Below, piece after piece: positions 221 to 27,310 of a DNA stretch of 64,000 nt (its first letter is position 1; each line of letters starts with the position of its first letter). The notes under the pieces are model-generated. The model was not told where the DNA came from, did no database searches, and saw only the letters and a program-made list of their open reading frames with translations. This DNA comes from Patagioenas fasciata (lineage: Eukaryota). Both the position numbers and the translations under genes were made by a program. Location of the stretch: assembly GCF_037038585.1 (NCBI RefSeq), contig NC_092556.1, positions 514,619 through 578,618 of the forward strand, in the 5' to 3' direction.

Positions 221-237
221 CTGGGGGCAACCAGGGG

Positions 238-1898
238 TGGTTGGTTAATGGGGGCAATGGGGGCAATGGGGACAATGGGGGTGATGGGGCAATGGGGGTA
301 ATGGGGGCAATGGGGGTAATGGGGCAATGGGGGTAATGGGGCAATGGGGGGAATGGGGGCAATGGGGGCAATGGGGGTAATGGGGCAATGGGGGCAATGG
401 GGGCAATGGGGCAATGGGGGTCAATGGGGCAATGGGGGCAATGGGGGTAATGGGGGCAATGGGGGCAATGGGGGCAATGGGGCAATGGGGGTCAATGGGG
501 GCAATGGGGGCAATGGGGTCAATGGGGGTAATGGGGCAATGGGGGTAATGGGGGCAATGGGGGCAATGGGGGCAATGGGGCAATGGGGGGCAATGGGGCA
601 ATGGGGGCAATGGGGGCAATGGGGCAATGGGGGCAATGGGGGCAATGGGGGCAATGGGGCAATGGGGGCAATGGGGCAATGGGGCAATGGGGTCAATGGG
701 GCAATGGGGCAATGGGGGCAATGGGGGTAATGGGGGCAATGGGGCAATGGGGCAATGGGGGCAATGGGGGCAATGGGGGCAATGGGGGCAATGGGGCAAT
801 GGGGACAATGGGGGCAGTGGGGGCAATGGGGGCAATGGGGGCAATGGGGGCAATGGGGCAATGGGGGCAATGGGGGCAATGGGGCAATGGGGGCAATGGG
901 GGCAATGGGGGTAATGGGGCAATGGGGGCAATGGGGCAATGGGGGCAATGGGGGCAATGGGGCAATGGGGGTGATGGGGACAATGGGGGCAATGGGGGCA
1001 ATGGGGTCAATGGGGCCATGGGGACAATGGGGGCAATGGGGTCAATGGGGCAATGGGGGCAATGGGGGCAATGGGGCAATGGGGCAATGGGGTCAATGGG
1101 GCAATGGGGACAATGGGGGCAATGGGGGTAATGGGGCAATGGGGGCAATGGGGGCAATGGGTATCAATGGGGGGCAATGGGGATCAATGGGGGGCAATGG
1201 GGGCAATGGGGGCAATGGGGACAATGGGGGTAATGCGGACAATGGGGACAATGGGGGTAATGGGGACAATGGGGACAATGGGGGTAATGGGGGTAATGGG
1301 GCAGTGGGGGCAATGGGGGCAATGGGGGGCAGTGGGGGCAATGGGGCAATGGGGGCAATGGGGACAATGGGGCAATGGGGGCAATGGGGCAATGGGGCAA
1401 TGGGGGCAATGGGGACAATGGGGCAATGGGGGCAATGGGGCAATGGGGGCAATGGGGGCAATGGGGACAATGGGGGCAATGGGGGTGATGGGGGCAATGG
1501 GGACAATGGGGGTAATGGGGACAATGGGGACAATGGGGGCAATGGGGCAATGGGGCAATGGGGACAATGGGGACAATGGGGGTAATGGGGGTAATGGGGC
1601 AATGGGGGTCAATGGGGCAATGGGGGCAATGAGGCAATGGGGTCAATGGGATCAATGGATCGATGGGGTCAATGGGGATCAATGGGGATCAATGGGGGTC
1701 AATGGGTCAATGGGGGTCAATGGGGATCAATGGGGGGCAATGGGGGCAATGGGGTCAATGGGGGCAATGGGGGCAATGGGGACAATGGGATCAATGGGTC
1801 AATGGGGTCAATGGGGATCAATGGGGATCAATGGGGGTCAATGGGTCATTGGGGTCAATGGGGTCAATGGGGTCAATGGGGTCAATGGGGGGGGGGTG
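238..1898. repeat. Tandem minisatellite (GGGGCAATGG / GGGGTCAATGG family, ~10-11 bp unit) filling SPNS1 intron 11
   Basis: Direct reading shows hundreds of near-identical units of gggggcaatgg, with variants gggacaatgg, ggggtaatgg and ggggtcaatgg. Confidence 0.9.
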
Positions 1899-1914
1899 GT
1901 CACGTGCCCCTCAC

Positions 1915-2083
1915 CTCGCGCCTCCCGCAGCGCTCGCGCGCGGTCCCGCGGGAGCGTGAGGGCGGATCCCAGGAAGGCCCCGCCCCCCAGGGCGGCCACG
2001 AAGGGGCAGAGCAGCAGCGCGCGGCCCAGCGCCTGCGCAGAGCGCAGCCACGAGGGGGCGGGGCCACGCAGCGCGTCACTCAG
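1915..2083 (-). CDS. SPNS1: SPNS1 exon 11
   Basis: Acceptor ccccgccccttcccccag|CTG (AG = plus 2084-2085). Encodes LSDALRGPAPSWLRSAQALGRALLLCPFVAALGGGAFLGSALTLPRDRARALREAR(G). Donor GCGAG|gtgagg. Matches human ...SEFRALQFSLMLCAFVGALGGAAFLGTAIFIEADRRRAQ. Confidence 0.85.
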
Positions 2084-2780
2084 CTGGGGGAAGGGGCGGG
2101 GTCACGGCGGCGCCGGCCAATCAGAGCGCCCCGGGGAGCCCCCCCTCCCACCCGGGTCCTAGCGCCGCCCGCTGGGGCCCTCCCGGTGCCCCCCAGTTCA
2201 TCCCGGTGCCCCCCAGCTCATCCCAGTGCCCCCCAGTCCCTCCCAGTGCTCCCCAGTTCATCCCGGTGCTCCCCAGTTCATCCCAGTGCCCCCCAGCTCA
2301 TCCCAGTGCCCCCCAGTCCCTCCCAGTGCTCCCCAGTTCATCCCGGTGCTCCCCAGTTCATCCCAGTGCCCCCCAGCTCATCCCAGTGCCCCCCAGTCCC
2401 TCCCAGTGCTCCCCAGTTCATCCCGGTGCTCCCCAGTTCATCCCAGTGCCCCCCAGTTCATCCCAGTGCCCCCCAGTCCCTCCCAGTGCTCCCCAGTTCA
2501 TCCCGGTGCCCCCCAGTTTGGTTCCCGGTCCCTCCCAGTGTCCCCCAGTCCCTCCCAGTGCCTCCCAGTCCCTCCCAGTTCAAACCAGTCCATACCATTC
2601 CCAGCAGGTAGGGGCTCCCCACGTCCCCCAGTCCCTCCCAGTCCCCCCAGTTCAAACCAGTCCCTCCCAGTCCATCCCAGTCCGCACCATTCCCAGCAGG
2701 TAGGGGCTCCCCGCGTCCCCCAGTCCCTCCCAATTCAAACCAGTCCCTCCCAGTTCAAACCAGTCCATCCCAGTCCGCAC

Positions 2781-2879
2781 CATTCCCAGCAGGTAGGGGC
2801 TCCCCGCGTCCCCCAGCAGATGCGACGCCCCCACCTGCAGGGCCGAGGCCGTCGAGCGGCGCCAGGGGGGGACCACGGT
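2781..2879 (-). CDS. SPNS1: SPNS1 exon 10
   Basis: Acceptor ccattgtccccag|ACC. Encodes [33 protein letters not shown]. Donor GGAATG|gtgcgg. Matches human [33 protein letters not shown]. Confidence 0.85.
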
Positions 2880-3420
2880 CTGGGGACAATGGGGACAATG
2901 GGGACAATGGGTCAGGGGGGTCCCCAGGGCCCCCCAATGGCACCCAGCGGGGACCACGGTCTGGGGACAATGGGGACAATGGGGACAATGGGTCAGGGGG
3001 GTCCCCAGGGCCCCCCAATGGCACCCAGGGGGGACCACGGTCTGGGGACAATGGGGACAATGGGGACAATGGATCAGGGGGGTCCCCAGGGCCCCCCAAT
3101 GGCACCCAGGGGGGACCACGCTCTGGGGACAATGGGGACAATGGGGACAATGGGTCAGGGGGGTCCCCAGGGCCCCCCAATGGCACCCAGGGGGGACCAC
3201 GGTCTGGGGACAATGGGGACAATGGGGACAATGGGTCAGGGGGGTCCCCAGGGCCCCCCAATGGCACCCAGGGGGGACCACGCTCTGGGGACAATGGGGA
3301 CAATGGGGACAATGGGTCAGGGGGGTCCCCAGGGCCCCCCAATGGCACCCAGGGGGGACCACGCTCTGGGGACAATGGGGACAATGGGGACAATGGGTCA
3401 GGGGGGTCCCCAGGGCCCCC
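2880..3420. repeat. ~60-bp tandem repeat x9 (gggaccacggtctggggacaatggggacaatggggacaatgggtcaggggggtccccagggccccccaatggcacccag) in SPNS1 intron 9
   Basis: Nine near-identical units are read directly. The satellite abuts the exon 10 acceptor. Confidence 0.85.
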
Positions 3421-4276
3421 AATGGCACCCAGGGGCCCACAAGTGTCCCCATTGCCCCCATTGTCCCCATTGCCCCCATTACCCCCATTGCCCCCCCTGT
3501 CCCCATTGCCCCCCATGTCCCCATCACCCCCATTGTCCCCATTATCCCCATTACCCCCACTACCCCCATTGTCCCCATTGTCCCCGTTACCTCCATCACC
3601 TCCATTGTCCCCAATGCCCCCATTGCCCCCATCGCCCCCATTGCCCCCATTGTCCCCATTGCCCCCATCACCCCCAATGTCCCCATCACCCCCAATGCCC
3701 CCCATTGCCCCCATTGCCCCCCAATGCCCCCAATGTCCCCATTGTCCCCAATGTCCCCATTGTCCCCATCACCCCCAATGTCCCCATCACCCCCAATGCC
3801 CCCCATTGTCCCCATTGCCCACCATGTCCCCACTGCCCCCATTGCCCCATTACCCCCAATATCTCCATTGCCCCCCATGTCCCCATTGTCCCCATTGTCC
3901 CCATTACCCCCATCGCCCCCATCACCCCCCATTGTCCCCATCGCCCCCATTGCCCCCCATGTCCCCATCACCTCCATTGTCCCCATTGTCCCCATTGTCC
4001 CCATCACCCCCAATGTCCCCATCGCCCCCATGTCCCCATTGTCCCCATTGCCCCCCATGTCCCCATCACCCCCATTGTCCCCATTGCCCCCCATGTCCCC
4101 ATCACCCCCATCACTCCCATTGCCCCCAATTCCCCATTGCCCCCCATGTCCCCACCGCCCCCATGTCCCCATTGCCCCCATCACCCCCATTGCCCCCATC
4201 ACCCCCATCGTCCCCATCACCCCCATCGCCCCCACTGCCCCCATGTCCCCATTGTCCCCTGTCCCCCTGTCCCCAC

Positions 4277-4342
4277 CAGCAGGATGTCGGCCACGATGGC
4301 CCAGTTCAGGGACAGCAGCGTCTCCCCCACGAAGATGAAAAC
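4277..4342 (-). CDS. SPNS1: SPNS1 exon 9
   Basis: Acceptor cctgtccccag|GTT. Encodes VFIFVGETLLSLNWAIVADILL. Donor CTGCTG|gtgggg. Matches human IFIFIGETLLSMNWAIVADILL. Confidence 0.85.
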
Positions 4343-5092
4343 CTGGGGACAGGGTCACGGGCTCAGGGGTCACGGGGTCACTGGGGTCACGGGGTCACTG
4401 GGGTCACTGTGTCCCCATAACCCCATAAACACTTCAAACCCCATAACCCCCCATACCCCCCCACCCCCATAACCCCAATACCCCCATGACCCCATAGACC
4501 CCATAACCCCCCATACCCCCATGACCCCCATAACCCCCTATGACCCCCATACCCCCATACCCCCAACACCCCCCATACCCCCATGACCCCCATACCCCCA
4601 ACACCCCCCATACCCCCATGACCCCCATACCCCCAACACCCCCCATACCCCCATGCCCCCCATAACCCCCTATGACCCCCATACCCCCAATACCCCCATA
4701 CCCCCATGCCCCCCATAACCCCCTATGACCCCCATACCCCCAACACCCCCCATACCCCCATGACCCCCATAACCCCCTATGACCCCCATACCCCCAACAC
4801 CCCAATACCCCCCATACCCCCATGACCCCATAACCCCCTATGACCCCCATACCCCCATACCCCCATGACCCCCATAACCCCTATGACCCCCATACCCCCA
4901 ACACCCCAATACCCCCCATACCCCCATGACCCCATAACCCCCTATGACCCCCATACCCCCAACACCCCCCATACCCCCATGACCCCCATGACCCCTATGA
5001 CCCCCATACCCCCAACACCCCCCATACCCCCATGACCCCCATGACCCCCATGACCCCCATGACCCCGCGCCCCCCACGTCCCCCCCACTCAC

Positions 5093-5282
5093 GTATGCGG
5101 CGGGGGGGCAGGGCCGGGCGCACAGCAGCGCCAGCAGCAGGCAGGGGGCGGCCCCCAGCACCCCTCCCCCGCACAGCAGGGGGTCCCCCCGCGGGGTCAG
5201 GGGGCGGAGCTTGCGCGACAGCCCCGCCCCCAACCCCACCCCCAGCACCCCCGACACGCACGTCAGCAGCCCGAACAGCAGG
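5093..5282 (-). CDS. SPNS1: SPNS1 exon 8
   Basis: Acceptor cctttgcccccag|C. Encodes (S)[63 protein letters not shown]. Donor GCATAC|gtgagt. Matches human [39 protein letters not shown]... Confidence 0.85.
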
Positions 5283-6897
5283 CTGGGGGCAAAGGGCAAA
5301 GGTCAGGGGGGGTCATGGGGGTCCAGGGGGTTATGGGGGGTTATGGGGTCACGGGGTTATGGGGCTTATAGGGGGTTATAGGGGTCATGGGGGTTATGGA
5401 GGTCATGGGAGTCAGGGGGGTCATGGGGGTCATAGGGGTCGGGGGGTCATGGGGGTCATAGGGGGTCATGGGGATGTGGGGTTATGGGGTCATAGGGGGT
5501 TATGGGGGTCATGGGGGTCATAGGAGTCAGTGGGTCATGGGGGTCATAAGGGGTCATGGGGGTCATAGGGGGTCATAAGGGTCAGGGGGGTTATGGGGGT
5601 CATGGGGGTCAGGGGGTCATGGGGGTCAGGGGGTCATGGGGGTCATAGGGGGTCATGGGGGTCAGGGGGATGTGGGGTTATGGGGGTTATGGGGGTTATG
5701 GGGGTTATGGGGTCATGGGGATGGGGGTTATAGGGTCATGGGGTCATAGGGGTCACGGGTCACCCCATTATCCCAATGTCCCCATTGTCCCCATTGCCCC
5801 CATTGCCCCCATTAACCCCATTGTTCCCATTACCCCATCACCCCCATCACCCCATTGTCCCTGCTGCCCCCATTGTCCCCATTGACCCCATTATCTCAAT
5901 GTCCCCATTGCCCCCATTGTCCCCATCACCCCCATTATCCCCATCACCCCACTGTCCCCTTGACCCCCATTGTCCCCATTGCCTCCATTGGCCCCATTGG
6001 CCCGATTGTCCCATTAACCCATCATCCCCATTACCCCATTGCCCCCATTATCCCATTGCCCCCATTGTCCCATTGTCCCCATTACCCCAATGTCCCCATT
6101 GCTCCCATTGTCCCATTGCCCCCGTCACCCCCATCCCCCCATCACCCCCATTGTCCCCATCACCCCCATTGTCCCATCACCCCCATTGTCTCATCACCCC
6201 CATCACCCCCATTGTCCCCATCCCCCCCATCCCCCCCATTGTCCCCATCACCCCCATTGTCCCATTGTCCCCATCACCCCCATCACCCCCATTCCCCCAT
6301 CACCCCCATTGTCCCATCACCCCCATCGCCCCCATTGTCCCATCCCCCCCATCACCCCCATCCCCCCCATTGTCCCATCCCCCCCATCACCCCCATTGTC
6401 CCCATCCCCCCCATTGTCCCATCACCCCCATCCCCCCCATTCCCCCATCACCCCCATTGTCCCATCACCCCCATTGTCCCATCACCCCCATTGTCCCCAT
6501 CCCCCCATCACCCCCATCACCCCCATTGTCCCCATCCCCCCCATCCCCCCCATTGTCCCCATCACCCCCATTGTCCCATTGTCCCCATCACCCCCATCAC
6601 CCCCATTCCCCCATTGTCCCATTGTCCCATCACCCCCATTGTCCCATCACCCCCATTGTCCCCATCACCCCCATCACCCCCATTGTCCCATCCCCCCCAT
6701 CACCCCCATTGTCCCATTGTCCCCATCACCCCCATTGTCCCCATCCCCCCCATTGTCCCATCACCCCCATTCCCCCATCACCCCCATTGTCCCCATCCCC
6801 CCCATTGTCCCATCACCCCCATTCCCCCATCACCCCCATTGTCCCCATCCCCCCCATTGTCCCCATCCCCCCCATTGTCCCCCCCCCCCCGTGTCAC

Positions 6898-7053
6898 CTC
6901 TCGTCGCCGTGGCAGCGCGGCCCCCGCTGGCAGGGGGGCAGGGCCCCGGTGGCCACGCGGCAGCGGCGCAGGAACGCGGGGGCCCAGAGGGCGAGGGCCC
7001 CGGTGACAAAGGACACGGCGGTGAAGCCCAGCGAGGACAGCACCAGCGTGCGG
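6898..7053 (-). CDS. SPNS1: SPNS1 exon 7
   Basis: Acceptor ccgtgtcccag|C. Encodes (N)RTLVLSSLGFTAVSFVTGALALWAPAFLRRCRVATGALPPCQRGPRCHGDE(S). Donor GACGAGAG|gtgaca. Matches human NPSFVLSSLGFTAVAFVTGSLALWAPAFLLRSRVVLGETPPC. Confidence 0.85.
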
Positions 7054-9412
7054 CTGGGACACGGGGACACCCCCGTCACACCCTGGGGACACCCTGGGGA
7101 CACCCTGGGGACACCCTGGGGACACCCCCGTCACACCCTGGGGACACCCCCGTCACACCCTGGGGACACCCCCGGTGACAAAGGACACGGCGGTGAAGCC
7201 CAGCGAGGACAGCACCAGCGTGCGGCTGGGGACATGGGGACAGCCCCGTCACACCCTAGGGACACCCTGGGGACACCCTGGGGACATGGGGACACCCCTG
7301 TCACACCCCTGGGGACACCCTGGGGACACCCTGGGGACACCCCTGTCACACCCTGGGGACACCCTGGGGACACCCTGGGGACACCCCTGTCACACCCTGG
7401 GGACACCCTGGGGACACCCTGGGGACACCCCCGTCACACCCTGGGGACACCCTGGGGACACCCCCGTCACACCCTGGGGACACCCTGGGGACACCCCTGT
7501 CACACCCCATGGGACATGGGGACACCCCTGGGGACATGGGGACACCCCCTGGGGACACCAATGAAACCCTGGGGACACCGCATGGGACACGGGGACACCC
7601 CTGGGGACACCCCTGTCACACCCCATGGCACCCCATGGGACATGGGGACACCCCTGGGGACATGGGGACACCCCCAGGGACACCCCATGGGACTCGGGGA
7701 CACCCCATAGGGACACAGGGACACCCCCGGGGATGCCCCATTGCACCCCATGGGACACGAGGACACCCCCAGGGACAACCCTGGGGACATGGGGACACCC
7801 CATAGGGACACAGGGACACCCCCAGGGACACCCCATGGCACCCATGGGACACGGGGACACCCCTGGTGACACCCCATTGCACCCCATGGGACATGGGGAC
7901 ACCCCTGGGGACACCGCATGGCACCCCATGGGACACAGGGACACCCCATGGGACTCGGGGACACCCCTGGGGACACGGGGACACCCCTGGGGACACCAAT
8001 GAAACCCTGGGGGTGCCAGGTCTACCCCATGGGGACACCAGGTCTACCCAGGGGGACCTGTCCCCATGTCCCCCCATGTCCCCATGTCCCCCATGTCCCC
8101 CATTGTCCCCATATCCCCCAATCCCCCCATAGCCCCCAATCCCCCCATATCCCCATAGCCCCCAATGTCCTCACATCCCCATTGTCCCCATATCCCCCAA
8201 TGTCCCCATGTCCCCCCATAGTCCCCCATTGTCCCCGTATCCCCCAATATCCCCAATCCCCCCACATCCCCCCAATGTCCCCACATCCCCCCATGTCCCC
8301 CATTGTCCCCAATGTCCCCACATCCCCCCATGTCCCCCATTGTCCCCAATGTCCCCACATCCCCCCATGTCCCCCATTGTCCCCAATGTCCCCACATCCC
8401 CCCATGTCCCCATAGCCCCCAATGTCCCCATATCCCCCCATATCCCCAATGTCCCCAATGTCCCCCCATGTCCCCCAATCCCCCCATATCCCCCAATGTC
8501 CCCATGTCCCCCATTGTCCCCATGTCCCCATTATCCCCATAGCCCCCAATGTCCCCACATCCCCCCCTGTCCCCCATTGTCCCCATATCGCCTCATGTCC
8601 CCCTATCCCCCAATGTCCCCAATGTCCCCCATTGTCCCCATATCCCCCATTGTCCCCAATCCCCCCACATCCCCCATTGTCCCCATATCCCCCATTGTCC
8701 CCACATCCCCCCATGCCCCCCAATGTCCCCACACCCCCCAATGTCCCCCAATGTCCCCATTGTCCCCAATGTCCCCACACCCCCCAATGTCCCCATTGTC
8801 CCCATTGTCCCCATTGCCCCCATTGTCCCCAATGTCCCCAATGTCCCCAATGTCCCCATTGCCCCCATTGCCCCCAATGTCCCCAATGTCCCCATTGTCC
8901 CCAATGTCCCCAATGTCCCCACACCCCCCAATGTCCCCACACCCCCCATTGTCCCCAATGTCCCCATTGTCCCCAATGTCCCCACACCCCCCAATCCCCC
9001 CACATCCCCCAATGTCCCTCAATCCCCTCAATGTCCCCCATGTCCCCCATTGTCCCCAATCCCCCCATGCCCCCCATTGTCCCCACATCCCCCCATGCCC
9101 CCCATTGCCCCCATTGCCCCATTGCCCCCATTGTCCCCAATGTCCCCACACCTCCCAATGTCCCCATTGTCCCCACTGTCCCCACTGTCCCCAATGTCCC
9201 CATTGTCCCCAATGTCCCCAATGTCCCCAATGTCCCCCATTGTCCCCAATGTCCCCACACCCCCCAATGTCCCCATTGTCCCCACTGTCCCCACTGTCCC
9301 CAATGTCCCCATTGTCCCCGATGTCCCCAATGTCCCCACACCCCCCATTGCCCCCATTGTCCCCATTGTCCCCAATGTCCCCCAATGTCCCCAGTGTCCC
9401 CCCTGTCCTCAC

Positions 9413-9555
9413 TTGGTGGCCAGGCGGCGCAGGTCGCTGGCCCAGTGCGGGTGGGGGAGGGGCGTGGCGGGGGGCAGCTCCAGGCCCCCCCGGGGGGGGT
9501 CGCTCACCAGCGTCACCAACAGCGCCAGGGCCACCAACCCCAGCACCGGGGTCAC
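9413..9555 (-). CDS. SPNS1: SPNS1 exon 6
   Basis: Acceptor cccgtgtccccag|GTG. Encodes VTPVLGLVALALLVTLVSDPPRGGLELPPATPLPHPHWASDLRALAT(N). Donor ACCAA|gtgagg. Matches human VTPGLGVVAVLLLFLVVREPPRGAVERHSDLPPLNPTSWWADLRALAR. Confidence 0.8.
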
Positions 9556-10654
9556 CTGGGGACACGGGGGGGTCACATGGGGTCACATGGGGGGGTCACA
9601 TGGGGACGGGGGGGGCACGTGGGGGGGGGGCACGTGGGGGGGGGTCACCTGGGGACACGGGGGGGTCACCTGGGGTCACATGGGGGGGTCACATGGGGAC
9701 GGGGGGGGCACGTGGGGGGGGGTCACCTGGGGACACGGGGGGGTCACCTGGGGGGGTCACATGGGGACGGGGGGGGCACGTGGGGGGGTCACCTGGGTCA
9801 TCTGGGGACATGGGGGGGGCACGTGGGGTCACATGGGGGGGTCACATGGGGACGGGGGGGGCACGTGGGGGGGGGGTCACCTGGGGTCACCTGGGGACAC
9901 GGGGGGGGTCACATGGGGATGGGGGGGGCACGTGGGGGGGTCACCTGGGGTCACCTGGGGACATGGGGGGGGGCACGTGGGGTCACATGGGGGGGTCACC
10001 TGGGGCCACCTGGGGTCACCTGGGGACACGGGGGGGCACGTGGGGACGGGGGGGGCACGTGGGGGGGTCACCTGGGGTCATCTGGGGACATGGGGGGGGG
10101 CACGTGGGGTCACATGGGGGGGGTCACCTGGGGACATGGGGGGGTCACCTGGGGGCACCTGGGGATGGGGGGGGGGGGCACATGGGGGGGTCACCTGGGG
10201 TCACCTGGGGACATGGGGGGGCACGTGGGGGCACATGGGGACGGGGGGGGCACGTGGGGGGGGCACGTGGGGACTTGGCGGGGTCACCTGGGGTCACATG
10301 GGGACCCTGTTGAGGACACTGGGGGGGTTTGGGGACCCTGCTGGGGACACTGGGGACCCTTTTGGGGACATTGGGGGGGTTTGGGGACCCTGTTGGGGAC
10401 ACTGGGGACCCTTTTGGGGACATTGGGGGGGTTTGGGGACCCTGTTGGGGACACTGGGGGGTTTGGGGTCACTGTTGGGGACACTGATGGGGACACTGGG
10501 GACCCTGTTGGGGACACTGGGGGGGTTTGGGGACCCTGTTGGGGACCCTGTTGGGGTCACTGATGGGGACACTGGGGACACTGGGGGGGTTTGGGGACAC
10601 TGATGGGGACACTGGGGACATTGGGGCCACTGGGGCCGTGGGTCCCGGGCTCAC

Positions 10655-10721
10655 CCTGAGGGCCCAGCGCCAGTCGGAGGCCACGTCCTTCACCTTGGCC
10701 CCGATGATGTAACCGAGCCCG
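10655..10721 (-). CDS. SPNS1: SPNS1 exon 5
   Basis: Acceptor catgtccccag|C. Encodes (S)GLGYIIGAKVKDVASDWRWALR. Donor CTCAGG|gtgagc. Matches human [23 protein letters not shown]. Confidence 0.85.
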
Positions 10722-13134
10722 CTGGGGACATGGGGACAGCATGGGGACATCAGCGGGGACATGGGGACATCAGCGGGGACATGGGGACATCAGCGGGGAC
10801 ATGGGGACATTGGGGACATGGGGACATTGGGGGCAATGGGGACATGGGGACATTGGGGGCAATGGGGACATCAGCGGGGACATGGGGACATTGGGGACAT
10901 TGGGGACATTGGGGACATGGGGACAATGGGGACATTGGGGACACCATGGGGACATCAGTGGGGACACGGGGACCCCACAATCCCCACCCCCGTGTCCCCA
11001 TGTCCCCATCACCCCCATGGCCCCCAACGTCCCCATAGCCCCCATTGTCCCCAATGTCCCCACTGATGTCCCCATCACCCCCCCATGTCCCCACAACCCC
11101 CAATGTTCCCCCATGTCCCCACATCCCCCCACAACCCCCAATGTCCCTCTGTCCCTCAATGTCCCCATGTCCCCCCACATCCCCAATGTCCCCATTGCCC
11201 CCAATGTCCCATCACCGCCATTGTCCCCAATGTCCCCAATGTCCCCATCACCCCCATCACCCCCATTGTCCCCACTGCCCCCATTGTCCCCATTGCCCCC
11301 AATGCCCCCATTGTGCCCAATACCCCCCACCGCCCCCATTGACCCCCATATTCCCCCAATGTCCCCATTGTTCCCGTCACCCCCACCACCCCCAATGTCC
11401 CCAATGCCCCCAATGTCCCCCCTCCCCCATCACCCCCATTGTCCCCATCACCCCATCCCCCCATTGCCCCCACTGCCCCCATCCCCCCCCACCCCCATCC
11501 CCCCCATCCCTCTCACCGCCCCATCCCCCCATTGCCCCCCATCCCCCCCAATGTCCCCACGTCCCCCATCCCCCCCCCATCCCCCCATCCCCCCCACTGC
11601 CCCCATTGCCCCCCCCACCCCCATCCCCCCCCCCACCCCCAATGCCCCCATTGTCCCCATCCCCCCCATCACCCCCATCCCCCCATTGTCCCCATCCCCC
11701 CCACCACCCCCATCCCCCCATTGCCCCCATTGCCCCCATTGTCCCCCATTACCCCCCCACCCCCATCCCCCCATCCCCCCCACTGCCCCCATCCCCCCCC
11801 CACCCCCATCCCCCCCATTGCCCCCATTGCCCCCCATCCCCCCCACTGCCCCCATCCCTCCCCCACCCCCATCCCCCCATTGCCCCCATTGCCCCCCATC
11901 CCCCCCACTGCCCCCATCCCCCCCACCACCCCCATCCCCCCATTGCCCCCATTGTCCCCCATTACCCCCCCACCCCCATCCCCCCCAATGTCCCCATTGT
12001 CCCCATTGCCCCATCCCCCCCCACCCCCATCCCCCCAATGTCCCCAATGCCCCCATCCCCCCATTGCCCCCAATGTTCCCATTGCCCCCCATTACCCCCC
12101 CACCCCCATCCCCCCCAATGTCCCCATGTCCCCCATCCCCCCCCACCCCCATCCCCCCATTACCCCCAATGTCCCCATTGCCCCCTCACCCCCAATGTCC
12201 TCATCCCCCCATTGTCCCCATCCCCCCAATGTCCCCATTGCCCCCAATGTCCCCATCCCCCTCCCCACCCCCATCTCCCCCATTGTTCCCAATGTCCCCA
12301 TCCCCCCCATCCCCCTCCCCCTCCCCCCCATCCCCCCCATTGCACCCCCCACCCCCATCCCCCCATCCCCCCCATTGCCCCCATCCCCCTCAATGCCCCC
12401 ATTGTCCCCATCCCCCCCCCCACCCCCATCCCCCCCAATGCCCCCAATGTCCCCATGCCCCCATCACTCCCATCCCCCCATCCCCCCCATTGCCCCCCCC
12501 ACCCCCATCCCCCCAATGCCCCCAATGTCCCCATCCCCCCCCATCCCCCTCCCCCTCCCCCCCATCCCCCCCATTGCACCCCCCACCCCCATCCCCCCAT
12601 TGTCCCCATTGCCCCCCATTACCCCCCCACCCCCATCCTGCCCAATGTCCCCATCCCCCCCCACCCCCATCCCCCCATTACCCCCAACGTCCCCATTGCC
12701 CCCTCACCCCCATTGCCCCCATCCCCCCCCAACCCCCCCAATGTCCCCCTCCCCCCCCATCACTCCCATCCCCCCATTGCCCCCATTGCCCCCCATTGCC
12801 CCCCACCCCTATCCCCCCCATTGCTCCCAATGTCCCCATCCCCCCCCCCCTCCCCCCCATCCCCCCATTGCCCCCCATCCCCCCCAATGTCCCCACGTCC
12901 CCCATCCCCCCACCACCCCCATCCCCCCCCCCACCCCCATTGCCCCCATTGTCCCCATCCCCCCACCCCCCCCATCCCCCCACCCCCCCCACCGCCCCAT
13001 CCCCCCACCGCCCCCATCCCCCCCATCCCCCCATCCCCCCCATTACCCCCAATGTCCCCCCCCATCCCCACCCCCCCACTGTCCCCATCCCCCCCACTGT
13101 CCCCCATCCCCCCCCCCAATGTCCCCGCTGTCAC

Positions 13135-13286
13135 CTCCCCAGCGGGACCCCCACGTAGAAGGCGGCGAGCGCGGGGGTGCGGGCGGGGCCGGCGCTGACG
13201 TCAGCGATGAGGGCGGGGGCCAGCGTGCTGAACCCCCCCTCCCCCACCCCCACCAGCGCCCGGCCCAGCAGCAGCAGCCAGAACCC
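13135..13286 (-). CDS. SPNS1: SPNS1 exon 4
   Basis: Acceptor ccgccctttgcgcag|GGG. Encodes GFWLLLLGRALVGVGEGGFSTLAPALIADVSAGPARTPALAAFYVGVPLG(S). Donor GGGGAG|gtgaca. Matches human [51 protein letters not shown]. Confidence 0.85.
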
Positions 13287-14745
13287 CTGCGCAAAGGGCG
13301 GGGTCAGCGGGGGCACGGGGGCACGGGGTCACAGGGGGTCATGGGGTCACAGGGGTCATGGGGTCATAGGGGGCGTGGGGGTCACAGGGGGTCATGGGGT
13401 CACAGGGGCTCACAGGGGGTCACAGGGGGTCAGGGGGTCACAGGGGGTCATGGGGTCATAGGGGGGCGTGGGGTCACAGGGGGCATGGGGTCATATGGGG
13501 TCACGGGGGTCATGGGGTCACAGGGGGTCACAGGGGGTCATGGGGTCACAGGGGGTCAGGGGGTCACAGGGGCTCACAGGGGGTGTGGGGTCACAGGGGG
13601 TCACAGGGGTCATGGGGTCACAGGGGGGCGTGGGGTCACAGGGGGTCATGAGGTCACAGGGGGTCACAGGGGGTCATGGGGGGCAGGGGTCACCGGGGTC
13701 ACGGGGTCAGGGGCTCACAGGGGGTCACAGGGGGTCACGGGGGGCAGGGGTCACACGGGTCATGGGGGCAGGGGGTCACAGGGGGTCATGGGGTCACAGG
13801 GGGTCAGGGGGTCACAGGGGGTCATGGGGTCACAGGGGGTCAGGGGGTCACAGGGGGTCACGGGGGGCAGGGGTCACAGGGGACATGGGGTCAAGGGGTC
13901 ACAGGGGGGCACGGGGTCACAGGGGGGCATGGGGTCATATGGGGTCACGGGGGTCATGGGGTCAGGGGGTCAAAGGGGGTCAGGGGATCACAGGGGTCAT
14001 GGGGTCATGGGGTCACAGGGGGGCGTGGGGTCACAGGGGGTCATGAGGTCACAGGGGGTCATGGGGTCACAGGGGGTCATGGGGTCACAGGGGGTCACAG
14101 GGGTCACGGTCAGGGGGTCACAGGGGGTCAGGGGGTCACAGGGGGGTGTGGGGTCACAGGGGGTCACAGGGGGTCATGGGGTCATAGGGGGGCACGGGGT
14201 CACATAGGGTCACAGGGGGTCATGGGGTCACAGGGTGTCAGGGGGTCACAGGGGGTCACCGGGGTCACGGGGTCAGGGGGTCACACCCACCCCACAGCCC
14301 CCCATGTCCTACCCCATTGTGCCCCACACCCACCCCATACCCACCCCATGTCCCCCCATGTCCCGCCCCACTGTGCCCCACACCCACCCCACACCCACCC
14401 CACAGCCCCCCATGTTCCGCCCCATTGTGCCCCACACCCGCCCCACACCCACCCCACAGCCCCCCATGTCCCGCCCCACTGTGCCCCACACCCACCCCAC
14501 ACCCACCCCACAGCCCCCCATGTCCCGCCCCACTGTGCCCCACATCTGCCCCACACCCACCCCATAGCCCCCCATGTCCCGCCCCATTGTGCCCCACACC
14601 CACCCCACAGCCCCCCATGTCCCCCCATGTCCCGCCCCACTGTGCCCCACATCTGCCCCACACCCACCCCATAGCCCCCCATGTCCCCCCATGTCCCGCC
14701 CCACCGTGCCCCACATCTGCCCCACACCCGCCCCACACCCACCTG

Positions 14746-14882
14746 GGGGGGCACGAAGCTGCTGGCCAGGGTGGCCCCGCCCCATAGGGCGCTGGCCCCA
14801 CAGAGCAGGAGCTTCCGGTTCCAGCGATCGCCCAGGAACCCGAAGAGGGGGGCGAGCAGGAGGTAACTGAGGATGAACACTG
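14746..14882 (-). CDS. SPNS1: SPNS1 exon 3
   Basis: Acceptor ccacggattctcag|TG, which lies inside the last unit of the adjacent 46-bp satellite. Encodes (V)FILSYLLLAPLFGFLGDRWNRKLLLCGASALWGGATLASSFVPPQ. Donor CCCCAG|gtgggt. Matches human [44 protein letters not shown]. Confidence 0.8.
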
Positions 14883-17300
14883 AGAATCCGTGGGTCAGAC
14901 CCACACGTGTGGGGCACGAACCCACCCAGCAGCCATGGGTCAGACCCACACGTGTGGGGCAGGAACCGACACTGAGAATCCATGGGTCAGACCCACACGT
15001 GTGGGGCACAAACCCACCCAGCAGCCATGGGTCAGACCCACACGTGTGGGGCAGGAACCCACCCAGCAGCCATGGGTCAGACCCACACGTGTGGGGCAGG
15101 AACCCACCCAGCAGCCATGGGTCAGACCCACACGTGTGGGGCAGGAACCCAAACCCAGCATCCATGGGTCAGACCCACACGTGTGGGGCAGGAACCCACC
15201 CAGCAGCCATGGGTCAGACCCACACGTGTGGGGCAGGAACCGACAGTGAGCAGCTATGGGTCAGACCCACACGTGTGGGGCAGGAACCCAAACCCAGCAT
15301 CTATGGGTCAGACCCACACGTGTGGGGCAGGAACCAACACTGAGAATCCATGGGTCAGACCCACACGTGTGGGGCAGGAACCCAAACCCAGCATCCATGG
15401 GTCAGACCCACACGTGTGGGGCAGGAACCCAAACCCAGCAGCCATGGGTCAGACCCACACGTGTGGGGCAGGAACCGACACTGAGAATCCATGGGTCAGA
15501 CCCACACGTGTGGGGCAGGAACCCAAACCCAGCATCCATGGGTCAGACCCACACGTGTGGGGCAGGAACCCACCCAGCATCTATGGGTCAGACCCACACA
15601 TGTGGGGCAGGAACCAACACTGAGAATCCATGGGTCAGACCCACACGTGTGGGGCAGGAACCCAAACCCAGCAGCCATGGGTCAGACCCACACGTGTGGG
15701 GCAGGAACCAACCCAGCAGCCATGGGTCAGACCCACACGTGTGGGGCAGGAACCCACCCAGCAGCCATGGGTCAGACCCACACGTGTGGGGCAGGAACCG
15801 ACAGTGAGCAGCTATGGGTCAGACCCACACGTGTGGGGCAGGAACCCAAACCCAGCATCCATGGGTCAGACCCACACGTGTGGGGCAGGAACCCAAACCC
15901 AGCATCCATGGGTCAGACCCACACGTGTGGGGCAGGAACCCAAACCCAGCAGCCATGGGTCAGACCCACACGTGTGGGGCAGGAACCGACACTGAGAATC
16001 CATGGGTCAGACCCACACGTGTGGGGCAGGAACCCAAACCCAGCATCCATGGGTCAGACCCACACGTGTGGGGCAGGAACCAACACTGAGAATCCATGGG
16101 TCAGACCCACACGTGTGGGGCACGAACCCACCCAGCAGCCATGGGTCAGACCCACACGTGTGGGGCAGGAACCCAAACCCAGCATCCATGGGTCAGACCC
16201 ACACGTGTGGGGCAGGAACCAAGACTGAGAATCCATGGGTCAGACCCACACGTGTGGGGCAGGAACCAACACTGAGAATCCATGGGTCAGACCCACACGT
16301 GTGGGGCAGGAACCGACACTGAGCAGCTATGGGTCAGACCCACACGTGTGGGGCAGCAACCCAAACCCAGCATCTATGGGTCAGACCCACACGTGTGGGG
16401 CAGGAACCCACCCAGCAGCCATGGGTCAGACCCACACGTGTGGGGCAGGAACCGACAGTGAGCAGCTATGGGTCAGACCCACACGTGTGGGGCAGGAACC
16501 CACCCAGCAGCCATGGGTCAGACCCACACGTGTGGGGCAGGAACCGACAGTGAGTAGCTATGGGTCAGACCCACACGTGTGGGGCAGGAACCCAAACCCA
16601 GCAGCCATGGGTCAGACCCACACGTGTGGGGCAGGAACCGACAGTGAGCAGCTATGGGTCAGACCCACACGTGTGGGGCAGGAACCCACCCAGCAGCCAT
16701 GGGTCAGACCCACACGTGTGGGGCAGGAACCCACCCAGCATCTATGGGTCAGACCCACACGTGTGGGGCAGGAACCCACCCAGCATCTATGGGTCAGACC
16801 CACACGTGTGGGGCAGGAACCGACAGTGAGCAGCTATGGGTCAGACCCACACGTGTGGGGCAGGAACCGACCCAGCAGCCATGGGTCAGACCCACACGTG
16901 TGGGGCAGGAACCCACCCAGCAGCCATGGGTCAGACCCACACATGTGGGGCAGGAACCAACACTGAGAATCCATGGGTCAGACCCACACGTGTGGGGCAG
17001 CAACCCAAACCCAGCATCTATGGGTCAGACCCACACATGTGGGGCAGGAACCAACACTGAGAATCCATGGGTCAGACCCACACGTGTGGGGCAGGAACCA
17101 ACCCAGCATCCATGGGTCAGACCCACACGTGTGGGGCAGGAACCAACACTGAGAGTGCGGGGGTCAGACCCACACGTGTGGGGCAGGAACCCACCCAGCA
17201 TCTATGGGTCAGACCCACACGTGTGGGGCAGGAACCCACCCAGCATCTATGGGTCAGACCCACACGTGTGGGGCAGGAACCAACACTGAGCAGCTACGGG
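14883..17300. repeat. 46-bp palindromic E-box satellite, ~52 copies (cccacacgtgtggggcaggaacccacccagcagccatgggtcagac), in SPNS1 intron 2
   Basis: Every unit contains the perfect 16-bp palindrome CCCCACACGTGTGGGG with a central CACGTG E-box. The array is followed at 17300-17620 by a related ~60-bp repeat carrying the same palindrome. Confidence 0.9.
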
Positions 17301-17619
17301 TCAGACCCACACGTGTGGGGCACTATGGGGCAGAGCTGTCTGCAGGAGCTCTATGGGGGTGATGTGTGGGTCAGCCCCACACGTGTGGGGCGCTATGGGG
17401 CAGAGCTGTCTGCAGGAGCTCTATGGGGGTGATGTGTGGGTCAGCCCCACACGTGTGGGGCGCTATGGGGCAGACCTGTCTGCAGGAGCTCTATGGGGGG
17501 GTGATGTGTGGGTCAGCCCCACACGTGTGGGGCGCTATGGGGCAGAGCTGTCTGCAGGAGCTCTATGGGGGGGTGATGTGTGGGTCAGCCCCACACGTGT
17601 GGGGCGCTATGGGGCAGAC

Positions 17620-17685
17620 CTGTCTGCAGGAGCCCGGATTTCCCGTCATCGATGCCGAAATAATCCTCAATATCCGGGAGAACAC
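17620..17685 (-). CDS. SPNS1: SPNS1 exon 2
   Basis: Acceptor gtctgtgccccccag|GT. Encodes (G)VLPDIEDYFGIDDGKSGLLQT(V). Donor CAGACAG|gtctgc (weak). Matches human GVLPDIEQFFNIGDSSSGLIQT. Confidence 0.8.
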
Positions 17686-18463
17686 CTGGGGGGCACAGAC
17701 CCATAAGTGACCCATAAGTGACCCATAAGTGACCCATAAGTGACCCATAAGTGACCCACAGCGACCCATAGAGACCCATAACCGACCAAAAATTGACCCA
17801 CAAGTGACCCATGAATCTCCCATAGTGACCCCCTGACCCATAAGTGACCCACAGCAACCCCCTAACTGACCCATAGTGACCCATAAGAGACCCATAGTGA
17901 CCCATAAGTAACCCAAAGTGACCCATAACTGACCCATAAGTGACCCATAAGTGACCCAAAGTGACCCATAGCAACCCCATAAGTGACACATAGCGACCCA
18001 TAAGTGACCCATAAGTGACCCAAAGTGACCCATAGCAACCCCATAACTGACCCATAGCAACCCCATAAGTGACCCATAGAGACCCATAAGTGACCCCATA
18101 GCAACCCCATAAGTGACCCATAGTGACCCATAAGTGACCCAAAGTGACCCCATAAGCGACCCATAAGTGACCCATAAGTGACCCATAACTGGCCCTTAGT
18201 GACCCATAAGTGACCTATAGAGACCCCCGTAACTGACCCATAGAGACCCATAAGTGACCCCGTTTTGCCCCCCCTGCCCCACATCTCCCCCCACATCTCC
18301 CCACACCCCGCCCCCCATCTGCCCCATATCTGCCCCACATCCCACCCCACATCTCCCCCATTCTCTCCCCATATCCCACCCCATTTACTCCCCACATCTC
18401 CCCACACCCCGCCCCACACCCCGACCCCCACATCTCCCCACATCCTGCCCCACATCTCCCCAC

Positions 18464-18659
18464 CAGCCAGTGTGAACCGGTCCATGTAGTTGAGCAGGTT
18501 GACGTAGCACAGCACGGCCAGCGTGCGCCGGGGCGCCGTGGGGCCGCTATGGGGCGCTGTGGGGCCGCTATGGGGCGCCGTGGGGCTGGGGGGGGCGCTG
18601 TGGGGCAGCCCCTCCCCCCCCGTGTCGTCCGCGCGGTGAAGGAGCGGCCCCGACGCCAT
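18464..18659 (-). CDS. SPNS1: SPNS1 exon 1 (start codon)
   Basis: ATG is the reverse complement of plus 18657-18659, in the context ccccATGG. Encodes MASGPLLHRADDTGGEGLPHSAPPSPTAPHSGPTAPHSGPTAPRRTLAVLCYVNLLNYMDRFTLA(G). Donor CTGGCTG|gtgggg. Matches human ...RSALIVAVLCYINLLNYMDRFTVAG. There is no in-frame stop upstream, so the start codon is inferred from homology and context. Confidence 0.7.
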
Positions 18660-19430
18660 GGGGCAGCCTGGGGGGAGACCCACAGGGACCACGGGGTGAC
18701 CCATAGGGACCCATAGGGACCCACAGAGTGACCCATAGGGACCATGGGGTGACCCATAGGGACCCATAGGGACCCATAGAGACCATGGAGTGACCCATAG
18801 GGACCATGGGGTGACCCACAGGGACCCATAGAGTGACCCATAGGGACCATGGGGTGACCCACAGGGACCCATAGAGTGACCCATAGGGACCATGGGGTGA
18901 CCCATAGGGACCCATAGGGACCCATAGGGACCATGGGGTGACCCATAGGGATACATAGGGACCCATAGAGTGACCCATAGGGACCATGGGGTGACCCATA
19001 GGGACCCATAGAGACCATGGAGTGACCCATAGGGACCCATAGAGTGACCCATAGGGACCATGGGGTGACCCATAGGGACCCATAAAGACCCACAGAGTTA
19101 CCCATAGGGACCCATAGGGACCCATAGAGTGACCCATAGGGACCATGGGGTGACCCACAGGGACACATAGGGACCCATAGGGACCCACAGAGTTACCCAT
19201 AGGGACCCATAGGGACCCATAGAGACCATAGAGACCCATAGGGACCATAGAGACCCACAGAGACCCATAGGGACCCATAGAGACCCATAGAGTGACCCAT
19301 AGAGACCGATAGAGACCCATAGAGACCCATAGAGTGACCCATAGAGACCGATAGAGACCCATAGAGACCCATAGAGTGACCCATAGAGACCCATAGAGAC
19401 CATAGAGACTCTAGAGACCCAAATTCCCCC
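18660..19430. repeat. Tandem satellite (gggacccatagggaccatggggtgacccatag family) between the SPNS1 start codon and the promoter
   Basis: Direct reading. It probably lies within the SPNS1 5'UTR or an intron, because promoter-like unique sequence only begins at ~19430. Confidence 0.8.
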
Positions 19431-19558
19431 CCCCTTCCCCCGCCCCTCCCCCCACCCCTCTCCCCCCCTCCTCTCCCCCATTTTTGCCCCAAACCCGCGG
19501 TTTTCACCCCAATTTTCCCCCTTTCCCGCCCTCACCGGCCGCCCCGGCCCAGCCGCGG

Positions 19559-19606
19559 CTCACGTGACCTCGCGCTCACGTGACCACCCCCCCTCCACAC
19601 GTGACC
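19559..19606. promoter_or_regulatory. Cluster of three CACGTG E-boxes (two are TCACGTGAC CLEAR-like motifs)
   Basis: gctCACGTGAcctcgcgctCACGTGAccaccccccctccaCACGTGAccgc. The lysosomal CLEAR consensus GTCACGTGAC is matched 9/10 by the first two. Confidence 0.55.
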
Positions 19607-19869
19607 GCCGCTTCCGAGAAGAAGCCGGAAGTGGCGTCCACTCCCCCCCCCCCCCCCCCGCCGCTTTACGAGAGAAATGGTGGCGATTTGGGGCCAAATT
19701 CGGGCCGTTCTGCCCCAAAATGCGACGGGGGGAGGGGAAACAATGGGGGAAATTGGCGGGAAATTCACCAGAGCTGCCTAAAAGAGCCCAAATGGGTCCC
19801 CCCCGAACTCCTGGGTCCGTCCCTCCCCCCGCCCCCCACCGCCGCCCCCGTCCATGGGGCGGGAGGAGG

Positions 19870-20200
19870 CGGGAGAACCAATGGGGGTGGAGGGGGCGGG
19901 GCGAGCGGCGCCTATGAGCCAATGGGAAGCGAGCGGGGGGGCGGGGGAAGCACCGGGGTCAACGGGGAGCGCGGCTGAGCCAATAGGAAGCGAGCGGGCG
20001 GGGCGAACCGCTCCGTGAACCAATGGGAAGCGAGTGGGCGGGGCGAGCTGGCTGTTTCACCGGGGAGCGAGTGGGCGGGGCTCGCGGCGCCGCTGAACCA
20101 ATGGGAACCGAGCGTGCGGGACGCGCGGCGCCCTGAGCCAATAGGGAGGGAGTAGGGGGGGGAGCGGCGGCGCTGAACCAATGGGGATGAAGCGGGGGGG
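19870..20200. repeat. Tandem ~45-60 bp promoter repeat, seven units of CCAAT box + GC box (gagCCAATgggaagcgagcGGGCGGGGCg)
   Basis: CCAATGGG or CCAATAGG occurs at ~19878, 19917, 19978, 20019, 20099, 20138 and 20178, each followed by gaagcgagcgggcggggcg-like sequence. The array lies immediately upstream of the INO80E ATG. Confidence 0.7.
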
Positions 20201-20238
20201 GCTCCCGGCACTTCCGTGAAGGAGCCGGAAGTGCGGCC

Positions 20239-20322
20239 ATGAACGGGGCGGGCGAGGTGGACGGCGGGGGCTACAAACGGCGCTACCGGGCCCTCAAGCG
20301 GCGCCTCAAGCTGCTGCTCTAC
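20239..20322 (+). CDS. INO80E: INO80E (INO80 complex subunit E) exon 1 (start codon)
   Basis: ATG at 20239. Encodes MNGAGEVDGGGYKRRYRALKRRLKLLLY. Donor CTCTAC|gtgagg. Matches human INO80E [27 protein letters not shown]. Confidence 0.85.
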
Positions 20323-20929
20323 GTGAGGGAAAGGGCGGGAAAGGGGGGGGAGGGGGGGCTTGGGGGAGGGGTGGGGGGGAACCCAGAGTGCGGGGGGGGA
20401 TGGGGGCATTGGGGGTTCTGACCCATAAGTGGAGCCATACGTGGCCCCATAGACCCATAAGTGGCCCCATAGATACATAAGTGGCCCCATAGATACATAA
20501 GTGGCCCCATAGACCCATAAGTGGCCCCATAGACTCATAAATGGACCCATAAGTGGCCCCATAGACCCATAAGTGGACCCATGGACCCATAAGTGGCCCC
20601 ATAAGTGGCCCCATAGACCCATAAGTGGACCCATGGACCCAGAACTGGACCCATAGACCCATAAATGGCCCCATAAGTGGATCTTTAGACCCAGAACCTA
20701 CCCCATAGACCCATAAGTGGCCCCATAAGTGGCCCCATAGACCCATAAATGGACCCTTAGACTCGTAAGTGGCCCCATAAGTGGCCCCATAAGTGGACCC
20801 TTAGGCCCATAAGTGGCCCCATAGACCCATAAGTGGCCCCATAAGTGGCCCCATAGACCCATAAATGGACCCATGGACCCATAAGTGGCCCCATAAGTGG
20901 CCCCATAGACCCAGAACTGGACCCATTGT

Positions 20930-26649: not shown

Positions 26650-27310
26650 GACCTCTGACCCCGCCTGACCCCCGGAGTGGCGATGATTGACAGCCCGAGG
26701 GATCCCATGTGACTTCTGAGTGGCGATGATTGACAACCCAAGTGACCCCATGTGACCCCTGGGAGCCCACGTGACCCCAGAGCAAGGATGATTGACAGCC
26801 CAAGTGACCCCATGTGACCCCTGAGTGGCCATTGATTGACAACCCAAGTGACCCCATGTGACCCCTGGGAGCCCACGTGACCCCGGAGCAAGGATGATTG
26901 ACAGCCCAAGTGACCCCATGTGACCCCACGTGACCCCGGAGCAAGGATGATTGACAGCCCAAGTGACCCCATGTGACCCCACGTGACCCCGGAGCAAGGA
27001 TGATTGACAGCCCAAGTGACCCCATGTGACCCCACGTGACCCCGGAGCAAGGATGATTGACAACTGGAGTGACCCCATGTGACCCCTGGGACCTCACGTG
27101 ACCCCCGATTGGCCGTTGATTGACAACCCAAGTGACCCCTGGGACCTCATGACCCCATGTGACCCCGGAGTGGCGATGATTGACAGCCCAAGTGACCCCA
27201 TGTGACCCTGGAGCAAGAATGATTGACAACCCAAGTGACCCCATGTGACCCCCAAGTGGCCATTGATTGACAGCCCAAGTGACCCACGTGATTGATTGAC
27301 AACCCAAGTG
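26650..27310. repeat. ~55-60 bp tandem repeat (~11 units: gtgaccccatgtgacccc...ggagcaaggatgattgacagcccaa) inside the INO80E 3'UTR
   Basis: Each unit contains TGATTGACA(G/A). The array lies between the stop at 26644 and AATAAA at 27353. Confidence 0.8.

Follow-up and report, generated by a model that had tools for sequence, protein, structure and literature searches.

A palindrome-bearing tandem array filling intron 2 of pigeon SPNS1, probably a product of local sequence and exon stuttering

We analysed a 64,000-nucleotide stretch of the pigeon Patagioenas fasciata (NCBI RefSeq assembly GCF_037038585.1, contig NC_092556.1, positions 514,619 to 578,618), hereafter the window, in which intron 2 of the lysosomal gene SPNS1 is entirely occupied by a tandem array carrying 54 E-box cores (CACGTG), each at the centre of a perfect palindrome. 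This array is probably a lineage-specific local repeat expansion of the intron by sequence and exon stuttering on a repeat-filled avian dot chromosome, a status that we infer for the Patagioenas record. The 54 cores are most likely passengers, since the palindrome would have been a large part of a small ancestral intron that any repeated unit must copy, and the array, judged from its sequence, most likely has no transcription-factor function.

The surroundings of the array are repetitive throughout. Of the window, 90% consists of tandem arrays, and for each of the 11 SPNS1 introns the share is 86-100%; every one of these introns has its own private array, neighbouring introns being built from different units. 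The 14-mer and the 31-mer core of the intron 2 array, described below, are confined to the interval between exons 2 and 3; the repeats are thus local and bounded by exons. Such introns have been described in chicken by Hron et al. 2026 (Genome Biol Evol, PMC12954441), where dot-chromosome introns are filled by local imperfect repeats whose units measure tens to hundreds of bases. Some of these introns show what is termed exon stuttering, in which the lateral part of an exon and its splice site are copied through the intron; the length of stuttering introns varies strongly among individuals, and chicken SPNS1 (chr38:738846-790781) is listed in the supplementary catalogue of exon-stuttering genes (PMC12954441). 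Likewise, the pigeon gene has private imperfect arrays bounded by exons, exon edges with donor or acceptor scattered through the intron, and an array length that is quick to change, here compared between species. It differs in its host, a pigeon, in the shortness of the copied exon pieces (13 nt of exon 2, while the published screen used matches of at least 20 bp; about 4 nt of exon 3, to which GGTTCCTG from deeper in that exon may be joined), and in what was amplified, namely a palindrome with a branch site, a core that is conserved across bird orders. Palindromes are not mentioned in the main text of that study (PMC12954441). In a zebra finch telomere-to-telomere preprint, tandem repeats account for over 70% of the introns of dot chromosomes, and the euchromatic compartment is enriched in inverted repeats and further non-B motifs (bioRxiv 10.1101/2025.10.17.683159); that work is a genome-wide survey of G-quadruplexes and 10-11-bp units, whereas the present case is one locus with a 45-72-bp unit and a 14-18-bp perfect palindrome.

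Composition of the intron 2 array

Exons were located with a human SPNS1 probe, and the resulting model was then independently validated against PDB, Pfam and NCBI proteins. The hand-refined model comprises 12 coding exons on the minus strand with a 510-aa open reading frame (ORF) and GT-AG boundaries at all introns. Its closest solved structure is human spinster homolog 1 (E 1.5e-175), its Pfam domain is MFS_1, and it is identical at 477/477 positions to the NCBI Patagioenas fasciata SPNS1 isoform X2, except for exon 10 (33 aa), which X2 skips; the exon 2/3 junction agrees between the two. A chicken origin of the DNA was rejected, the coding sequence being 100% Patagioenas fasciata. The array occupies the whole of 14880-17619 between coding exons 2 and 3, in the SPNS1 intron to which an earlier note on this DNA had assigned it. 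The main features are as follows (repeat coverage from Tandem Repeats Finder, TRF).

14743..14879, minus strand: SPNS1 coding exon 3 (VFILSYLLLAPLFGFLGDRWNRK...), from a tblastn match and the gene model
14880..17619, minus strand: SPNS1 intron 2, 2740 bp, GT-AG boundaries, 12-exon model, TRF coverage 1.00
17620..17685, minus strand: SPNS1 coding exon 2 (GVLPDIEDYFGIDDGKSGLLQT), from a tblastn match and the gene model, with spinster homolog 1 matches
14892..17297, no strand assigned: 52 short units (45/47 bp), constant 31-bp block GGGTCAGACCCACACGTGTGGGGCAGGAACC plus a 14-16-bp spacer, from the unit list
17298..17633, no strand assigned: 5 long units (70-72 bp), 4 of them with the 18-bp palindrome GCCCCACACGTGTGGGGC

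TRF resolved the array into a tandem repeat at 14886-17322 (period 47, 52.7 copies, 88% match), within which a higher-order repeat was detected (period 92, 26.4 copies, 90% match), and a second repeat at 17298-17633 (period 72, 4.7 copies, 97% match). Cutting the array at the anchor GGGTCAG set the unit boundaries and yielded 57 units. The 52 short ones measure 45 or 47 bp, not the fixed 46 bp given in the earlier note, and the five long ones 70-72 bp instead of about 60; the palindrome that the note ascribed to the repeat at 17300-17620 is indeed carried by four of these five. CACGTG occurs 54 times within 14883-17620, which agrees with the more than 50 cores announced for these roughly 2.7 kb, and 30 times in the rest of the window. 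The 14-mer CCCACACGTGTGGG has 54 occurrences in the window, all of them in the intron 2 array (0 in 100 shuffles). A 16-bp perfect palindrome had been attributed to every unit. However, the 16-mer CCCCACACGTGTGGGG quoted for it is found only four times, always in long units (17375-17604), where the perfect palindrome in fact extends to 18 bp, and the remaining 50 copies read ACCCACACGTGTGGGG, so that the perfect palindrome there is 14 bp. The announced total of about 55 perfect palindromes stands for 54 cores, and three of the 57 units have decayed to CACATG (15585, 16928 and 17022). Since all three have the same spacer type, they probably go back to one CpG transition that was later copied, and a single independent event is uninformative either way on the protection of the site.

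The units are strikingly uneven in their variation. The 31-bp block GGGTCAGACCCACACGTGTGGGGCAGGAACC is near-invariant, with 9 minority cells out of 1612 in columns 1-31 of a per-column tally, while all nine common dimorphic columns lie within the spacer, columns 32-45; by our own simple combinatorial estimate the chance of such clustering is about 7e-5. The invariant block is symmetric about the dyad of the palindrome. Spacers fall into four main types with several recombinants, in no regular order; altogether 16 spacer variants follow one another non-periodically. Read on the gene strand, the constant block is GGTTCCTG-CCCCACACGTGTGGG-TCTGACCC, in which the branch-site consensus CTGAC comes immediately after the palindrome. 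Reading by eye, we noticed a second, odd palindrome, GGGTCAGACCC (gene strand GGGTCTGACCC), that overlaps the branch-site consensus in each unit of 14892-17297. It has CCC in common with the E-box palindrome, so that the core could fold in two alternative ways. A G-quadruplex array was rejected on inspection alone, as the G-runs of the unit are too widely spaced for the canonical motif. An exact-match scan of metagenome contigs with the 31-bp core returned 0 matches, and the ORF read through the array, used as a protein query for other assemblies, gave no candidates. Searched against Rfam 15 at a permissive E-value, the array yielded only microRNA and small nucleolar RNA noise, the best scores being 20-30 bits against gathering thresholds of 43-136.

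Copied splice junctions and intron 2 in other species

Both edges of the intron are copied into the array. The acceptor TCAG/TGT at the exon 3 edge (a slash marks the splice junction) is retained in 13/52 short units, whose spacer there continues as ATGGATTCTCAG/TGT and so reproduces the genuine 3' splice site CCCACGGATTCTCAG/TGTTCATCC. Each long unit repeats the terminal 13 nt of exon 2 with the 5' splice site, and the final one is the genuine exon 2/intron junction. The exon 2 edge CTCCTGCAGACAG, followed by GT or CT, is present in four copies (donor form CTCCTGCAGACAG/GTCTGCCCC); only one of them keeps the GT, and the other three read CAGACAG/CT.

14882..14921, minus strand: array unit nearest exon 3, serving the real 3' splice site (gene strand GTGCCCCACACGTGTGGGTCTGACCCACGGATTCTCAG/), corresponding by alignment to the conserved element of parrot, crane and eagle
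14972..17057, minus strand: decoy 3' splice modules, branch-site consensus CTGAC, then ATGGATTCTCAG/TGT
14972, 15340, 15481, 15620, 15992, 16086, 16272, 16963 and 17057, minus strand: nine exact copies of GGATTCTCAGTGT
17474..17475, minus strand: sole decoy 5' splice site retaining GT, 144 nt into the intron

Read-through from exon 2 into intron 2 meets a stop after 11 codons, and the three decoy acceptors that were translated (14972, 15340 and 15481) lead to a stop about 10 codons into the added sequence. Selection may be acting against the decoy splice sites.

We compared the SPNS1 loci of eight other species (alligator, crane, eagle, parrot, ostrich, sparrow, Caloenas and Columba livia), with Patagioenas represented by one sequence. 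The orthologous loci sit on records of 0.49-0.84 Mb. Between species, intron 2 ranges from 84 nt to 2.7 kb and the palindrome from 0 to 54 copies.

Alligator: 93 nt, no palindrome element
Crane: 84 nt, CTGCCCCACACTTGTGGGGCTGACCCACGG followed by the 3' splice site; core CACTTG
Eagle: 101 nt, element as in crane
Parrot (Guaruba): 972 bp, a single 18-bp palindrome, 17 nt past the 5' splice site
Ostrich: 974 bp, related GGCCCCACACGTCGGGG units, 20-mers (GGCCCCACACGTCGGGGTCC); head of exon 3 three times
Sparrow: 1.8 kb, no palindrome element, AT-rich units; 3' splice site and head of exon 3 nine times
Caloenas nicobarica: 653 bp, 5 palindrome copies; units of about 150 bp, into which some 35 nt of exon 3 are incorporated
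Columba livia: about 1.25 kb, 25 copies in 50-52-bp units that also contain GTCTGCCCC from the 5' splice site
Patagioenas: 2740 bp, 54 copies

The core CACTTG of crane and eagle means that there is no E-box in these two birds, and the array units of the parrot (GCCCCACACTGATGGGGC, GCCCCACACATAGGGCTCT) are devoid of CACGTG. CACGTG is intact in 25/25 palindrome copies of Columba and 5/5 of Caloenas. It is probably the ancestral state of the element, as read from pigeons and parrot, which have it, and from the ostrich with CACACGTC. The copy nearest the 5' splice site retains the 18-bp form of the parrot in both Patagioenas and Caloenas. From this series it follows that the core is old, that the E-box is not conserved everywhere and that the arrays are lineage-specific. 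Copy numbers of 1, 5, 25 and 54 in related birds likewise indicate a behaviour like that of stuttering introns and not that of a constrained enhancer. Longer copies of exon 3 are present in intron 2 of Caloenas, ostrich and sparrow. In the sparrow (Ammospiza; locus L007, 1583-3395) the units are AT-rich, about 200 bp long and contain a T-run, each of the roughly nine copies ending in CAG/TGTTCATCAGCAG; this AT-rich expansion implies that stuttering is not tied to GC-rich or G-quadruplex-type sequence. In Caloenas, the final 20 codons of exon 3 (aa 114-133) recur about ten times in intron 3 (locus L001, 5279-6386).

On this basis we propose the following course of events. The ancestral intron 2 would have been a mini-intron of some 85-100 nt, its 3' half holding the palindrome GCCCCACAC(G/T)TGTGGGGC, directly adjoined by CTGAC, the branch-site consensus, and by the 3' splice site. 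In pigeons, this core was duplicated along with pieces of the adjoining splice junctions, short units arising as core plus 3' splice site and long units as core plus 5' splice site and 13 nt of exon 2, and then amplified to 5 copies in Caloenas, 25 in Columba and 54 in Patagioenas, with a unit design that differs in each species. The main effect of the array would be on splicing, with the outermost sites being the true ones, most decoys having lost GT or AG, and translated decoys running into premature stops; the self-complementary units are predicted to pair with one another in the pre-mRNA.

E-box flanks, pairing and alternative explanations

The earlier note had read the array as a collection of high-affinity sites for USF, MYC/MAX or TFE/MITF factors, hence possibly as a factor sink or an intronic enhancer of a lysosomal gene. 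All 54 sites have the flanks A-CACGTG-T (ACACGTGT), with CA and not GT on the 5' side (in longer context ...CCACACGTGTGG..., against GGTCACGTGAG for the promoter counterpart). The CLEAR box is TCACGTGA (GTCACGTGAC), and sites bound by MITF have a 5'T and/or a 3'A, which is called key (PMC7427332); USF favours a GT on the 5' side, and a flanking T is poorly tolerated by MYC-MAX (PMC8431614). The CLEAR-type TCACGTGA is absent from the array (0 occurrences) and has 3 occurrences in the rest of the window, so the array sites fall outside the flank rule for MiT/TFE factors, and they also lack the 5' GT of USF (GTCACGTGAC). These flanks make the array sites neither CLEAR- nor USF-optimal, contrary to the affinity proposed for them. 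For class B (MYC/MAX-type) sites, the CACGTG core is present and the flanking base is not T, and the sites would be compatible with MYC/MAX-class binding if unmethylated. The array thus resembles the sites of MiT/TFE factors (TFEB, TFE3, MITF) in its core and in residing in a lysosomal gene, and differs from them in its flanks, the true GTCACGTGA sites being found in the promoter and in other species.

This promoter cluster, of CLEAR type, lies at 19560-19606, about 0.9 kb upstream of the SPNS1 start codon, in the promoter region between SPNS1 and an INO80E-like gene, and consists of two TCACGTGA and a half-site ACACGTGACC. Clusters of GTCACGTGA are also present upstream of SPNS1 in Caloenas (3 sites), crane (5), parrot (3) and alligator (6), at the following positions of the compared loci.

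L001, 1463-1507: upstream GTCACGTGA cluster
L003, 249-389: upstream GTCACGTGA cluster
L004, 458-539: upstream GTCACGTGA cluster
L008, 270-444: upstream GTCACGTGA cluster

At the level of motif matches, the promoter cluster is conserved from alligator to birds. It is likely to be a better place than the intron array for control by MiT/TFE factors or USF, if these regulate SPNS1. In the literature on SPNS1, TFEB, CLEAR and the promoter we found no intronic E-box.

It is distinctly unlikely, therefore, that the array is a functional cluster of bHLH-ZIP sites, acting as a sink for USF, MYC/MAX or MiT/TFE factors or as an intronic enhancer of SPNS1. Such a function would account for the integrity of the cores in the three pigeons (only 3 decayed in Patagioenas, none in the other two), for the constant block centred on the dyad, and for a CACGTG that is probably ancestral and whose ancestral single copy would lie a few hundred bp downstream of the start codon. 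However, the flanks have neither the 5'T/3'A needed by MiT/TFE nor the GT preferred by USF, and it is the promoter that holds a conserved CLEAR-type cluster. Crane and eagle retain the arms with a core that is not an E-box, sparrow and alligator lack the element, and copy number differs tenfold among pigeons. Conservation extends some 8-9 bp past the palindrome on each side, which is wider than a bHLH-ZIP site, and the three CACATG units, probably one event, are silent on whether the site is protected.

The palindrome could alternatively be the cause of the expansion as well as its centre of homogenisation, with hairpins or inter-unit pairing stalling replication or promoting misalignment. The earlier note had also suggested that the palindromes could extrude as cruciforms or hairpins. 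The hairpin of the 14-mer is weak (-3.1 kcal/mol, with z -0.26 for the whole unit), so cruciform extrusion at single units is probably not favoured; that of the 18-mer reaches -7.1 kcal/mol (z -2.4). Pairing between units is strong because the cores are self-complementary, with z -3.7 for three DNA units and z -5.6 for 471 nt of RNA. The whole-intron fold has -1505 kcal/mol, compared to -1388 kcal/mol with pairs limited to 120 nt and -1019 kcal/mol with local hairpins only. Across species, 91% of the cells of the stem are paired, with one double change and three pairs that never vary; 48/500 shuffles were as good, and a covariation test of the stem across the compared species gave no significant signal. 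A screen of 55 arrays of the window found palindromes of 14-18 bp (shuffle P <=0.003) in the intron 2 array only (two TRF rows), the next longest being 10 bp (P ~0.01) and common to three arrays at 51-54 kb. Palindromes as a general feature of the arrays were thereby rejected, and since the long palindrome is peculiar to intron 2, palindromes are not what makes these introns expand.

A driving role of the palindrome agrees with the strong pairing between units and with the gap between the whole-intron fold and local hairpins, with the symmetry of the invariant block about the dyad, and with the fact that all three pigeon arrays are built around the core; DNA secondary structure is also among the possible causes put forward for stuttering (Hron et al. 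2026, PMC12954441). We nevertheless consider it unlikely. The other arrays of the window have expanded without a significant palindrome, as has intron 2 in the sparrow, and the ostrich did so with a related imperfect motif only. The perfect palindrome has been lost from the amplified units of the parrot, a nearly identical stem has led to no expansion in crane and eagle, and the hairpin of a single unit is weak.

An assembly artefact, that is, a mis-assembled or inflated repeat, is very improbable. Dot-chromosome repeats are hard to assemble, and the exact copy number could be wrong, with one Patagioenas fasciata assembly compared. However, intron 2 also contains arrays of this palindrome in two independently assembled genomes, those of Columba livia and Caloenas nicobarica, so that the array is not peculiar to one assembly, a possibility that the earlier note had considered. 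The 16 spacer variants come in a non-periodic order, and the exons and splice sites on either side are intact, in agreement with the protein model at NCBI.

Stuttering with passenger E-boxes remains our preferred explanation, and three observations weigh against it. The dyad-centred 31-bp block is almost invariant while the common variants are all in the spacer, a contrast that a purely neutral passenger model does not predict and that suggests either constraint on the core or its preferential homogenisation. A block of about 30 nt is common to the unit heads of all three pigeon arrays. Finally, the intron 2 array alone among the 55 has a palindrome of such length. We therefore also considered that the 18-bp palindrome by the branch site may be a functional element kept since early neoavian evolution, either an RNA hairpin that would aid the splicing of a very short GC-rich intron or a promoter-proximal class B E-box, whose amplification would give the pigeon array a working role, a proposal to which we give little credence. 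If it were true, inter-unit RNA duplexes could bring the outermost splice sites together and hide the internal decoys, or the 54 non-CLEAR E-boxes could buffer MYC/MAX/MXD-type factors beside a TFEB-type promoter; either version would explain a 31-bp core that is invariant within and between pigeon arrays despite diverging spacers.

GGAA microsatellites bound by EWS-FLI1 are an example of a transcription-factor-binding repeat array. They and the intronic satellite DNA of Drosophila Y-linked genes (Fingerhut and Yamashita 2022, as cited in PMC12954441) resemble the SPNS1 array in that a short motif is tandemly repeated many times within a gene or close to one. In contrast to the GGAA arrays, the E-boxes of SPNS1 are candidate sites known from sequence alone. 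In the Drosophila genes, as that citation presents them, satellite DNA is transcribed as part of the intron; compared to these megabase introns, the SPNS1 array is far smaller and derives from the intron's own splice-region sequence.

As an E-box satellite the array is of minor importance, since it adds one further stuttering intron to those of avian dot chromosomes. What would make it valuable is that it offers a clean, datable example of how stuttering starts. With the intron unexpanded in crane and eagle, a single palindrome in the parrot and three array designs in pigeons, the seed, made up of palindrome, branch site and splice junctions, can be read directly, as can the order of events. 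The array also raises two questions: why a unit core can stay invariant alongside a diverging spacer, which the published description of stuttering leaves open, and how splicing remains correct across dozens of copies of the gene's own branch site and splice sites.

Promoter region and other repeats of the window

Next to the CLEAR-type cluster, about seven CCAAT boxes lie in a repeat of some 40 bp (GAACCAATGGGAAGCGAG...) at 19880-20330, and GGAAGTG (ETS-like) motifs were seen at 19629-19642 and 20220-20233. An ATG at 20239 opens an exon that matches INO80E weakly (Pfam E 2.4e-4, below cutoff), and from its motifs the 19880-20330 region looks like a bidirectional SPNS1/INO80E promoter.

Further exon stuttering was seen in SPNS1 at 7165-7225, where the 3' splice site is copied together with the ~57 nt that open exon 7, and at 2575-2631, which is a partial copy of the end of exon 10. 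The half-site GCCCCACAC has 24 copies outside the intron 2 array, 10 of them in the adjoining intron 3 array, and is an ordinary, common local motif. CACGTG also occurs in the units of the arrays at 9616-10264 (GGGGGCACGTGG) and 26768-27285 (CACGTGAC), so that E-box cores recur in GC-rich arrays of the window without palindromic flanks. Most arrays of the window are strongly G-rich or C-rich on one strand, while that of intron 2 is mixed. Over positions 1-20000, successive arrays are rich in G-runs or C-runs with a polarity that flips often, sometimes inside one intron, as in intron 7 at about 5760, and intron 2 is among the few stretches of mixed polarity. On the minus strand, 32187-32359 and 38407-38856 are C2H2 zinc-finger exons (Pfam zf-C2H2, E 1e-15), which we take to resemble MAZ, and the introns between them are likewise packed with tandem arrays.

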